Shown: in pieces, positions 13,587 through 17,732 of the stretch
How positions within the stretch are numbered: position 1 is the stretch's first letter
How the letters are laid out: each line of letters begins with the position of its first letter
NCBI RefSeq assembly: GCF_004010195.1
Contig: NC_057751.1
Span: forward strand, 10,799,831-10,833,280
Length of the DNA stretch: 33,450 bases
From: Chiloscyllium plagiosum
Taxonomy: Eukaryota
Direction of reading: 5' to 3'
Notes under the pieces: model-generated
Told to the model about the DNA's origin: nothing
Database searches by the model: none
The model's input: only the letters and a program-made list of their open reading frames with translations
Program-made: the position numbers and the translations under genes

Positions 13587-13659
13587 TCACTGTATTCATC
13601 AGATTCTAGACAGTGTTAATCATATTCACCAACATGACATAGTTCACAGGGACCTGAAG
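13587..13659 (+). CDS. CAMK2B: CaMKII exon 6, variant A (gamma-type): [24 protein letters not shown]
   Basis: Acceptor gttttacag|T after a long pyrimidine tract, donor AAG|gtcagt; 73 nt; phase 2 in, phase 0 out; no stop; HRDLK catalytic loop. Confidence 0.93.
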
Positions 13660-15402
13660 GTCAGTATTTTCTAACATTTACAGGAATGAAGAAAAAGAAC
13701 CAAAAAAAAATGATACGCTTGAGTCTAAAATTGTGTCATGTTTACAGGTGCAGAGTTTCTTCTGCCTCTGGTTATTGTTTGTCCTCTTTTGTGTTGTTAT
13801 TTTACCTCATTTTCGTTGTCCGACTTTGCATGGCTATCACTACCATTCCCAAAAGTCTCTTGGGCTCTCAGCTGTGACAGGCAATCGAAAGGAAATCAAT
13901 CGGGAAAACTCTAATCATCAGCAGTGCTCTTTCCCCCTAACTACCCACCTCCCTTCCACCTTGCCCTCATGGTTCCCTCATCTTGTATGCTAGGTCAAAA
14001 ACTTGAATTCGTTTTGCAGTGAAAGCTTGCTGCACATATTGGAAACAGAATGCCCTTCCCCATAAACCCTGTCATATTTAACATAAAGTATTGTTTTGGA
14101 AAATGTTACCCCCTCATGACCTTTGAGACTTCAAGGGCACGAATGCACTTCTACCCCTCCCATCCTTCTCGAGTCTGTCATGCTTTATTGCTCTTGACAA
14201 TGTTCTTTAAGAGAAGCACAGACTGGTTTGTGGCCAGGGCCAAGCATGAGCTTAGAACCACTTCCTCCTCCTCATGGCAGCTTCAACAACTGAGACTCCG
14301 ATCAACCACTCTATCAAGTGAATGGGGCACTCGGTATCATACAAGAATCAGACTGCACGCCACTGCGGGTCAATGGGTGGATTATTTAAAGCTGCTTAGG
14401 TCAGTTTTGGTAAAATTGAGGCCACTGAGTCACTTGGATGGTGGTTAGATGCAGGCAATGTTGGTTTACATTGAGATCAGGCTGCAGGACATAGACCATC
14501 AATTGTGAAGTTGTATGACAGGGCGTGAAATCTTTTTTGAACTTGAGGTTGGTATTTAATGTTCCAGAACAAGGATTTTGCACCATCTCTGCTCAAGCTG
14601 AGGGCAGGGGTATGGCAAGATGGCATAGTACAGGATGAGGTAATGTTTCTTGCACCAGTACAATATACATTTGGTCACCTATTGGTTTTCTTGAGCGGTC
14701 TTGTTTTCTTTCTTGAAATATATAATGCCTTGCTCGTTGCCTAAATGCTGACTCCCATCAGTTGATAGAGGGTGACTGTATAGCATTACCTGAAAGGCTA
14801 AAACAGGTTTATTATTAGGTTAACTCGTTCACCATGGGCTGTGGTATTTATTGAGTCTTTTGTATACTCAGATTTGAATAATTCTGACTTCTTTCCACCC
14901 CCCTTTTTCAGATAATTACAGTACCTTGATATTCACTTTTATTTGCCATTATGTGAGTTTTTCATTGTTTCTTTTCATTGATGATATTTTTGTGGGTAAA
15001 TCAGTATTTTTGAGATTCAAAATGATAAACAGTTGACATCAAGAATCACATGGTCCTCTCCCCTGTCCATGATCAGCATCAAAAGAGACCCTGTTTCATT
15101 TTGAACTCATCATGAGGCGAACTTAGTTTTCACCTCCTGTTCTGAAAATCCTGCAGCACTTCACTGGTCTCACTCAGTGGAATCCTTGCAAATGCTCAGA
15201 TTTGTTCATCTCCCAGTGGATCACCCTTCCTTTGGAGGCTTCATGAAAAAATAAGATGTAATTCCGAGAAACTATCAATGTCCATGTGTCATAGTCCTTC
15301 CAGCTTCAGATCATTTTTCTTCAATTGAGAGATAATGCAAAGATGAGTATTAAAAATCCTTTTTAGTTAATATAACTATTAATTTTCTCAGTTTAATCTT
15401 AG

Positions 15403-15686
15403 CATAGAATCCCTACAGAGTGGAACCAGGCTACTCAGCCCAGCAAGTCCACAAAGATCACCTGATCAGCACCCTACCCCATCCCTGCCTTTCCCATGGC
15501 TAATCCATTTGGTCTGCACATCCCTGGGTATTATGGGCAATTTAACAATAGCCAATCTATCTTTGGATTGTGCAGACATGGAGACAACGTGCAAACTCCA
15601 CGCAGACAGTTGCCCGACGGTGGAATTGAGCCTGGGTCCCTGGTATTCTGAGGCAGCATTGCTAACCACGGAGCCATCATGCTGTC
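15403..15686 (-). mobile_element. HE1/V-SINE-type SINE
   Basis: Reverse complement of the 5495-5838 family, from 'catagaatccctacag' to 'gctaaccacggagccatcatgctgtc'. Confidence 0.85.
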
Positions 15687-15801
15687 TTTTTTGGGATTGG
15701 TAGCCTTTTGCCATGATTCTGTACTGTGCGTTTTCAGAAGATTTGTAGCTCAGGTTTAGGTTCTGGATGTAGGTTTGCTTGCTGAGCTGGGAGGTTCATT
15801 T

Positions 15802-15841
15802 CCAGACGTTTCGTCACTCTAATAGGTAACATCTTCAGTGG
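15802..15841 (-). ncRNA. Minimal type I hammerhead ribozyme motif (Penelope-associated), core intact
   Basis: Minus strand: CCA-CTGAAGA-T-GTTAC-ctattaga-GTGAC-GAAA-C-GTC-TGG (3-bp stem I, stem II, minimal stem III, GUC site). Confidence 0.75.
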
Positions 15842-16528
15842 GCCTCAGGCAAAGCAATGAACATGATTCCTGCTTTCTATTTATATGTTTGGGTTTCCTT
15901 GGATTGGTGATGTCATTTCCTGTGGTGATGTCATTTCCTGTTCTTTTTCTCAGGGGGTGGTAGATGGGATCTAGAGCTCCGGTTGGAATGCCATACTTCT
16001 CGGAATTCTTGTGCATGTCTCTGTTTGGCTTGTCCTAAGATGGATGTGTTATCCCAGTCAAAGTGGTGTCCTTCCTTATCTGTATGTAAGGATACTATTG
16101 AGAGAGGGTCATGTCGTTTTGTGGCTAATTGGTATTCATGTATCCTGGTGGCTAGTTTTCAGCCTGTTTGTCCAATGTAGTGTTTGTTACAATTCAAACA
16201 GGCAGAAAACTAGCCAACAGGATACATGAACACCAACTAGCTACTCTCTCACTAGTATCCTTACATATAGATGAGGAAGGACACCACTTCGACTGGGACA
16301 ATGCATCCATCTTAGGACAAGCCAAACAGAGACATGCATGAGAATTCCGAGAAGCTTGGCATTCCAACAGGAACTCTATCAACAAACACATCGAGTTAGA
16401 CCCCATCTGCCACCCCATGAGAAAAAAAACAGGAAATGACATCACCACAGGAAATAACATCACCAACCCAAAGAAACCCAAGCATATAAATAGAAAGCAG
16501 GAAACATGTACACTGCTTCGCTTGAGGC

Positions 16529-16568
16529 CCACTGAAGATGTTACCTGTTAGGGTGACGAAACATCTGG
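16529..16568 (+). ncRNA. Minimal hammerhead ribozyme motif, stem III mutated
   Basis: CCA-CTGAAGA-T-GTTACC-tgttag-GGTGAC-GAAA-C-ATC-TGG; GTC>ATC, consistent with CpG decay. Confidence 0.6.
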
Positions 16569-17629
16569 AAATGAACCTCCCAGCTTAGCGAGCAAACCTA
16601 CATCCAGATTCTGTACTGTTATGGCAGTTCAGTTTGCATTTTTTAGTGGGAGAGCACGATGTCAATATGAAATCATTGTTTCTTAGAAAAATGTTTACAT
16701 TCTTCACGTTCTAATGAGAGCTGGCCCCAATGAGATAATGTTTTGAGTTCTTTGGATCTTGAATTAACAGTGGGAAGCTTGGGTTGGGTGAAGGTTCAGG
16801 AAATGCACTAATTTTCTACAGCTATCTCAGAACTCTGAACATTGCACCTTCTTTCAAATGAGCCTCACAACAGCCAGGAGCCACAGACTGAAGCAAAGAA
16901 GTAATTTAAAATAACATGGGGCCATCAAGTTTCTATGAAGTGACCCTGGGATTGAACTGAGTTGGGAGTTTGAAGGTGATGGGTGTTTCAAATTGTGTCC
17001 CCAAGTCCTGATCACAAGCAATGATCACGATATATGCTGTGTGTCTTTGGTTGTTTTGAGGTCTACTGTTTATCCCAAATGTTTAGTTTGTTCAGTGGCT
17101 GTAGCAGTGGTAAAGATCACATCTGAGTGCTGCTTTTGAGGTAACATAGTGGTGAGCAAGATGCTTGTGTTTCAAAACTGACTGTTGCTGCTTGTTTCTG
17201 GTGGTGTGCCTGTCTGACCTGGTTTGGGCTGACAGAAGACAAGTGGTGGGACAAGAGCCCTGTTCTGCTGTGGTCAATCAGTGGGGTATTCAGAGGAGGG
17301 TGATACACATGTGCATATGTGGGCGTTTGAATTACTGTGTAAATTTGCCCATGGGAATCAAGCAGATTCTGTATGCTTTGACAGACTGCCTCCCTGGTCT
17401 AGCCATTTGATTTAGAATGCAAGATATTCTGTGACAGCAATGGGCCGATCAAATCCCCGACCTTCCCATGGAGAAACAAGTCAAACCAAAAAGTGGTTCT
17501 GTTGCATTTTTCCTGCTGGATTGAGCCAGCACCAGATGACTCCTGCTTTGCCCTGGCCTGGCATTATGCTGAGACATGTTTTTTGAGAGAGACAGAGCGC
17601 CAGTCTGTGCCACGTGAGACTCACCTGCA

Positions 17630-17656
17630 ACTAACACGCCCCCTGGTGTTTGCATG
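17630..17656 (+). promoter_or_regulatory. Consensus branch point/QKI motif ACTAAC and RBFOX motif TGCATG at the exon 6B 3' splice site
   Basis: ACTAAC at 17630-17635; TGCATG at 17651-17656, immediately before the CAG acceptor. Confidence 0.55.
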
Positions 17657-17659
17657 CAG

Positions 17660-17732
17660 TCATTGCATTCAACAGATCCTGGAAGCCGTACTGCACTGCC
17701 ACCAAATGGGTGTTGTCCATCGCGATCTTAAG
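17660..17732 (+). CDS. CAMK2B: CaMKII exon 6, variant B (alpha/beta-type): [24 protein letters not shown]
   Basis: Acceptor tttgcatgcag|T with ACTAAC branch point at 17630-17635, donor AAG|gtgagt; 73 nt; same phases as variant A. Confidence 0.96.

Follow-up and report, generated by a model that had tools for sequence, protein, structure and literature searches.

An exon 6 pair in an elasmobranch CAMK2B gene: a candidate mutually exclusive switch in the kinase core

In neurons and muscle CaMKII has a central part in decoding calcium signals, and to our knowledge work on its splice variants has dealt almost entirely with the linker. A stretch of 33,450 nucleotides (nt) from Chiloscyllium plagiosum (assembly GCF_004010195.1, contig NC_057751.1, positions 10,799,831 to 10,833,280 of the forward strand; here called the window, with positions counted from its first letter) raises a question about the kinase core: why does one CAMK2 gene carry two intact exons, 6A and 6B, for the same part of the catalytic domain, and how old is the pair? 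Our answer is that 6A and 6B are very probably a tandem-duplicated, mutually exclusive exon pair in an elasmobranch CAMK2B gene, and that the pair is older than the gene duplications that gave rise to the vertebrate CAMK2 family.

The exon 6 pair and its reading frame

The exons of the window, with the conserved blocks and motifs considered below, are these:

1834..1899, + strand: CAMK2B exon 5, 66 nt, the upstream constitutive exon, ending ...GCAAG and followed by gtaagt
13587..13659, + strand: exon 6A, A type (gamma-like), 73 nt
13636..13669, + strand: block conserved in nucleotides, made up of the final 24 nt of 6A and the donor GTCAGTATTT
13827..13832, + strand: TGCATG, 168 nt 3' of 6A
17614..17659, + strand: conserved intron element at the 6B acceptor, with CTAAC at 17631-17635 and TGCATG at 17651-17656
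17660..17732, + strand: exon 6B, B type (alpha/beta-like), 73 nt, donor GTGAGT
20962..21064, + strand: CAMK2B exon 7, 103 nt, the downstream constitutive exon
25850..25933, + strand: CAMK2B exon 8
28559..28653, + strand: CAMK2B exon 9
30466..30588, + strand: CAMK2B exon 10
30998..31081, + strand: CAMK2B exon 11, start of the regulatory segment

Each version of exon 6 consists of one leading base and 24 codons, is open in frame, lies in the same phase as the other and is bounded by AG/GT splice sites. Upstream of 6A is a pyrimidine-rich tract ending ttttacAG and downstream a GTcagt donor; 6B is preceded by tttgcatgcAG and followed by GTgagt. Compared by script, the two exons differ at 30 of 73 nt and at eight of 24 residues (117, 121, 122, 124, 126, 129, 130 and 131 in alpha numbering), and 11 of the 16 residues they have in common are encoded by different codons. 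A reading of this DNA made earlier from its letters alone (the sequence-only reading) had reported these sizes, phases, splice sites and differences, all of which were exact on recount, and had placed the flanking junctions correctly at 1899, the end of exon 5, and at 20962, the start of exon 7. The intron separating 6A and 6B is 4.0 kb long. In a tblastn search over 19.8 kb of the window each exon matched its own peptide (E values 1.7e-15 and 5.8e-15) and the other peptide at 4e-9; no third copy of exon 6 was found in that region, all other matches having E values above 1.

The two peptides correspond to the two kinds of kinase core seen in human CaMKII. Against the chains of solved structures, 6A is identical to human gamma at 23 of 24 residues, the exception being E>D, and 6B is identical to human alpha and beta at all 24, just as the sequence-only reading had stated for the mammalian genes. 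Exon 6A encodes the C-terminal part of helix E through to the start of the catalytic loop at HRDLK, and this motif is retained whichever exon is used; what is exchanged is eight residues in helix E and in the strand preceding the catalytic loop.

The reading frame itself enforces a choice between them. Splicing exon 5 to exon 7 through 6A or through 6B leaves the frame open throughout, joining 6A and 6B together brings in a stop at the end of 6B, and skipping both brings in a stop in exon 7; only single inclusion preserves the frame. Frame-broken messages are degraded by nonsense-mediated decay, and messages with both exons or neither, which would be cut short, are probably removed in this way. 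Equal length, common phase, intact splice sites, 16 of 24 residues in common and loss of frame on double or zero inclusion are together what is expected of a tandem-duplicated mutually exclusive pair. For transcripts, exclusivity is indicated indirectly, by public protein models: all 120 of the nearest models listed carry exactly one version of exon 6. We note that some automatic teleost and skink models fuse both versions through intron read-through or ad hoc joins; such two-exon models are annotation errors, and can be caught by a check of the frame.

That the second copy is an artefact of assembly or a recent duplication might be suspected from the 500-N gap at 24837-25336 of the window. 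The gap lies in a different intron, the copies differ at 30 of 73 nt and stand 4 kb apart in unrelated intron sequence, and gene models from many independent assemblies contain the same pair; copy divergence and occurrence in other genomes already refute this explanation.

Gene identity and use of the two exons

The window covers exons 5-11, the kinase-domain part, of elasmobranch CAMK2B. A Scyliorhinus torazame protein (P0051), named by NCBI as CaMKII subunit beta isoform X18, matches window exons 5, 6A and 7-11 at 100%. Among solved structures it matches the CaMKII beta holoenzyme best, over residues 1-409 and so through the linker, and its hub scores highest with beta (285.8 bits, followed by gamma at 280.9, delta at 258.5 and alpha at 245.7). 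P0051 and the genome of the window disagree at one residue, in the last hub exon, and the last exon on the window's contig ends HFHCSGSPAAPLQ. The intron read-through of the window differs from that of a second S. torazame model, P0001.

A comparison across the 3.56 Gb assembly from which the window is taken gives four CAMK2 loci:

C42:10799831-10833280 (the window): 6A and 6B, 4.0 kb apart; beta
C1 (loci L021-L023): 6A at C1:132795609-132795681 and 6B at C1:132796597-132796669, 0.9 kb apart in the same order; delta-like
C14: a single B-type exon; alpha-like
C38: a single A-type exon; gamma-like

The C1 6A peptide is identical to human delta chains at 24 of 24 residues, C1 6B encodes the same 24 residues as window 6B, and the last hub exon of this locus scores best with the delta hub. 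Because a separate delta-like locus is present in the same genome, the window is not CAMK2D, and with the match to P0051 and its beta hub score this bears out the beta-like identity proposed from the letters alone. The gene of the window, with its beta-type linker and hub, is distinct from the other three loci. At C38 the exon is closest to human gamma. The last hub exon at C14 scores best with the alpha hub (148.8 bits, against 135.7 for delta), and the alpha name is taken from that exon, which is clearly alpha-like. Exon 7 of the same locus (L029:1658-1762) scores slightly better with human delta than with alpha, being identical to delta at 34 of 35 residues; in the CAMK2 family a single kinase exon is a poor guide to paralog identity.

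Both exons of the beta gene appear in public gene models. A query made of 6A and its in-frame intron flanks matched 5320 proteins, and our counts are taken from the 120 listed. In 83 of these the window 6A peptide stands unchanged, as a spliced exon, between exons 5 and 7, which supplies the conservation check that the sequence-only reading had proposed; three more have the exact peptide in another context, two fuse both exons, and the remainder have A-type exons that are gamma-type or divergent, in many cases as genomic read-through frames. Named matches among those listed include 'subunit beta' of about a dozen sharks and rays, chimaera fragments, and camk2b1 of catfishes, characins, a herring and a mormyrid. 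When the whole of P0051 was used as the query, the 120 nearest full-length proteins listed comprised 75 with 6A, 45 with 6B and none with both. Models of the two kinds come from the same species and contig (in S. torazame, for example, isoform X18 has 6A and X19 has 6B), a gar beta isoform has 6A, and 6A stands in isoform X1 of several species. Public gene models thus already treat 6A and 6B of CAMK2B as alternatives. The earlier suggestion that such a pair had not been described for a CAMK2B gene therefore holds in part: our literature search, which covered sources other than subscription journals, found no paper on it, but isoform models carrying one or the other exon are already public for at least a dozen sharks and rays, a gar and many teleosts.

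The beta pair may extend beyond fishes. Cobra and skink beta-type models suggest that it outlived the split between fishes and tetrapods. In the skink model a divergent A-type exon stands before 6B, and this exon may be decaying.

The skink exon, together with the single exon 6 with which human CAMK2B is drawn in the figure of bioRxiv 10.1101/721589, would fit an explanation in which 6A is an unused, decaying relic in the shark as well and the beta gene makes only the 6B form. This we consider very improbable. The frame of 6A is open and its AG/GT sites are intact; sharks, rays, a chimaera, a gar and many teleosts share its exact peptide, in the exon 5-6A-7 context counted above; most of the nearest full-length models listed use it, including the X1 isoforms; and its last 24 nt with the donor are identical to the delta-like locus at 33 of 34 positions.

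Age of the pair

If the pair had arisen separately within each gene, the exons would be expected to resemble their partners; if it predates the gene duplications, they should resemble their own type in other genes. Among the six exon 6 copies of this genome, nucleotide differences number 9-18 of 73 within a type and 23-30 of 73 across types. A maximum-likelihood tree of the six copies (73 columns) divides by variant type with support 100/99, and the approximately unbiased (AU) test rejects both the trees in which the window pair is held together (p 7e-5) and those in which the C1 delta-like pair is held together (p 0.005). Since the tree groups the exons by type and grouping by gene is rejected, the pair predates the gene duplications; the exon tree that the sequence-only reading had called for thus came out as it had predicted, and supports the age that it had put forward. 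Synonymous sites give separate support for the A-type group, in which 3 of 18 and 6 of 21 common codons differ, as compared with 8 of 16 to 15 of 20 across types.

Several points weigh against this conclusion. Synonymous sites hardly support the B-type group (11 of 24 to 13 of 23 codons differ within the type), the tree consists of six short rows of 73 columns, and selection on the peptide could draw exons of the same type together. The use of 6A in this animal, moreover, is judged from public gene models of related species, and is to that extent a prediction for C. plagiosum.

The position of window 6A within the A-type group also has to be considered. It adjoins the gamma-like exon (support 82/89), from which it differs by 9 nt and in 6 of 21 common codons, and this proximity would also fit a later entry of 6A into the beta gene, by conversion or exon transfer from gamma. 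On that reading, or if beta and delta duplicated exon 6 independently, the pair would not be older than the gene duplications. An ancestral pair predicts the same sister relation of the beta and gamma A-type exons if those genes are sister copies. Furthermore, the arrangement is the same in beta and delta, with the A-type exon 5' of the B-type exon, and the two genes have in common both a 46-nt intron element next to the 6B acceptor and the donor GTCAGTATTT that ends 6A; the B-type exons of beta, delta and alpha form one group in the tree, and grouping by gene is rejected. The delta pair is itself dated to at least 'Chordata' in a catalogue of human tandem duplicated exon events (PMC9741552, supplementary table S2). 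A later origin in the beta gene accordingly seems improbable to us, if a little less so than the decay of 6A, and we retain the ancestral pair as the preferred explanation.

On the ancestral reading, delta and beta retained both exons after the genome duplications, alpha the B type and gamma the A type, and the gamma-type and alpha/beta-type kinase cores of mammals go back to two splice forms that a single ancestral gene produced. The distribution in this genome (both exons in beta and the delta-like locus, only the B type in the alpha-like and only the A type in the gamma-like locus) agrees with the earlier proposal that paralogs lost different copies. Relics of the lost partner exon were sought between exons 5 and 7 of the alpha-like and gamma-like loci, with no match at E below 0.2. 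A weak 'HIHQ' match in the alpha-like locus was considered as such a relic and set aside, as it sits in an unrelated open frame. Arginine codons (AGR in A-type exons, CGN in B-type exons) separate the six copies in this genome, but were rejected as a marker of type because the printed human beta exon 6 uses AGA.

Intron elements, candidate splicing control and known systems

If the choice between 6A and 6B is regulated, what might regulate it? The alignment of beta with delta at 6B extends 46 nt into the upstream intron (17614-17659), with 41 of 48 columns identical by eye, while its upstream reach is 2 nt at exon 5, 7 nt at 6A and 6 nt at exon 7. When 6B is aligned with the single exon of the alpha-like locus the alignment begins 3 nt 5' of the exon, and the 46-nt element is absent upstream of that exon. 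Within the element are the branch-point-like CTAAC and, 9 nt 5' of 6B, TGCATG. The element is better conserved between beta and delta than are the synonymous sites of 6B, where 11 of 24 codons differ, and this argues for constraint and not for recent conversion. That beta and delta share this element is a new detail.

Read in frame, the element gives 'PLVFACS'. A 6B read-through query drew 5450 matches, of which 120 were listed, in a ranking that favours proteins sharing the read-through. The residues just 5' of the B-type exon were 'PLVFACS' in 73 of these 120, a count that is not a frequency because of that ranking, another '..FACS' in 27 and '..FA[RH]S' in six; the rest comprise 'EGGGRCS' in six pipefish models, two other endings in four, and four proteins with no exact B-type exon. 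The matches listed take in delta and beta models of teleosts, one model from Xenopus and one beta-type model from a cobra, the last of which reads as the window does. The 'FAC' of the teleost and snake read-throughs is compatible with TGCATG, the third codon bases being left unfixed.

On the side of 6A, the block at 13636-13669 is identical to the delta-like locus to the extent given above and to the gamma-like locus at 29 of 34 positions. Searches with the conserved 6A-end and 6B-acceptor blocks for traces of a lost partner exon in the alpha-like and gamma-like loci gave no match at 11 or fewer mismatches. TGCATG occurs 3' of all three A-type exons within 170 nt (at +168 in the window, and at +89 and +66/+119 in the other two), and at -9 of 6B in both the beta and the delta-like locus; none was found within 300 nt of the alpha-like single exon. 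A conserved (U)GCAUG close to the exon, as expected of an Rbfox site, is thus present. Rbfox proteins follow a position rule, by which an upstream motif represses an exon and a downstream motif favours it.

From these features a mechanism can be sketched. The choice between 6A and 6B may be regulated through the conserved 6B acceptor element, with its strong CTAAC branch point, poor pyrimidine tract and UGCAUG at -9, and the conserved weak GUCAGU donor of 6A and the downstream UGCAUG probably also take part. As our leading guess, an Rbfox-type factor would act in excitable tissues to repress 6B and promote 6A; that the TGCATG pattern acts in this way is a candidate reading of the motifs that we would expect to fail rather more often than to hold. 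The exchange of peptides might tune the back face of the C-lobe (its stability, or the docking of the regulatory segment or hub) and not catalysis itself. The broader proposal is more speculative again, and we put it forward tentatively, thinking it rather unlikely as a whole: that the 6B acceptor element, the 6A donor block and the downstream TGCATGs form a splicing switch predating the vertebrate genome duplications and still working in CAMK2D and CAMK2B from sharks to squamates, by which excitable tissues would choose a version of helix E and the beta holoenzymes of fishes and sharks would gain a gamma-like core, an isoform class lost from the mammalian beta gene.

Some observations count against such a switch. 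TGCATG hexamers occur at about 0.2-0.6 per kb here, and the Rbfox reading was formed after the data had been seen. Base pairing of the block at the end and donor of 6A with the 6B acceptor element was also considered and rejected, as it does not go beyond shuffled controls: the duplexes have energies of -22.8 and -22.2 kcal/mol, shuffle means are -21.3 and -25.3, and the fractions of shuffles at least as good are 0.30 and 0.77. The significance of 6A/6B in mouse Camk2d is described as yet to be elucidated in the relevant passage of PMC12060085.

Outside its exons the window is intron, including repeats common to other loci. The assembly gap noted above lies in the intron between exons 7 and 8, and its run of 500 Ns accounts for long stop-free frames in the open reading frame list. 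Interspersed repeats lie at 2369-3735, 5496-5838, 15399-15682 and 15764-16195, with several copies in introns of the other three CAMK2 loci at 70-86% identity; one carries an 18-nt tandem duplication (15905-15941; inverted at 16429-16465). Only three tandem repeats are present in the window, all short, of 18 nt. No Rfam family matched the window at its gathering score, and no Pfam family was found in 20 hand-chosen longer frames (104-180 residues) out of 867 frames of at least 25 residues.

A kinase-core switch conserved for more than 400 million years in two of four genes implies a selected difference between the two versions of helix E, and the shark layout, with both exons in beta and delta, B only in alpha and A only in gamma, is a clean natural setting in which that difference could be studied. 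The intron element common to beta and delta offers a concrete handle for splicing experiments, and this conserved acceptor element is what is left of most interest once the known parts of the system are set aside.

A mutually exclusive exon 6 belongs to a kind already known, having been published for CAMK2D. That CAMK2D has two versions of the exon, as the sequence-only reading had said, is stated in two sources: PMC12060085 describes exons 6A and 6B of mouse Camk2d as mutually exclusive, with 6B in only about 10% of olfactory-bulb transcripts, and bioRxiv 10.1101/721589, which prints the exon letters, has human delta encoding two versions in a figure legend and draws the other three genes with one. 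A CAMK2D tandem duplicated exon event is listed in the table of PMC9741552 cited above, in the text of which CAMK2D is mentioned three times and the CAMK2 family is not discussed. The CAMK2 family has no occurrence in Abascal et al. 2015 (PMC4494069), and the portion of Hatje et al. 2017 consulted names CAMK2D only as a gene with four clusters.

The pair in the window is like the CAMK2D pair (6A/6B, or 6v1/6v2) in that it concerns the same exon of the same kinase fold, of 73 nt, with the A-type copy 5' of the B-type copy and, very probably, mutual exclusion of the two, and the human delta 6v2 letters printed in the preprint translate by eye to the window 6B peptide. It differs in that its A-type exon is of the gamma kind, the delta kind being ILESVNHCHLNGIV, in the length of the intron between the exons (4.0 kb, as compared with 0.9 kb in the delta-like locus), and in belonging to the beta gene, whose human counterpart is drawn there with one exon 6. 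Compared by eye with the same printed letters, window 6B differs from human beta exon 6 at 16 of 73 nt, and window 6A is 10 nt away from human gamma exon 6 and 9 nt away from human delta 6v1. Between C1 and human delta the counts are 2 of 73 nt for 6A against 6v1 and 3 of 73 nt for 6B against 6v2, so that the delta-like pair is near-ultraconserved in nucleotides over the distance from shark to human.

Comparable histories are known in other families. Sodium-channel exons 5a/5b, as treated in the part of PMC12772994 consulted, resemble CAMK2 in that intron sequence beside a duplicated exon is common to gene copies that split early, although they belong to a different gene family. Section 12 of PMC9741552 describes gene copies that may keep both exons or different ones, as in FYN and the SRC family or CACNA1C/D and CACNA1F/S, and CAMK2 is like these in that an ancestral exon pair was inherited and the copies keep both exons or one. 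CAMK2 goes beyond such cases in that retention differs between lineages of a single gene, with both exons in the beta gene of fishes and one in the human beta gene as drawn.

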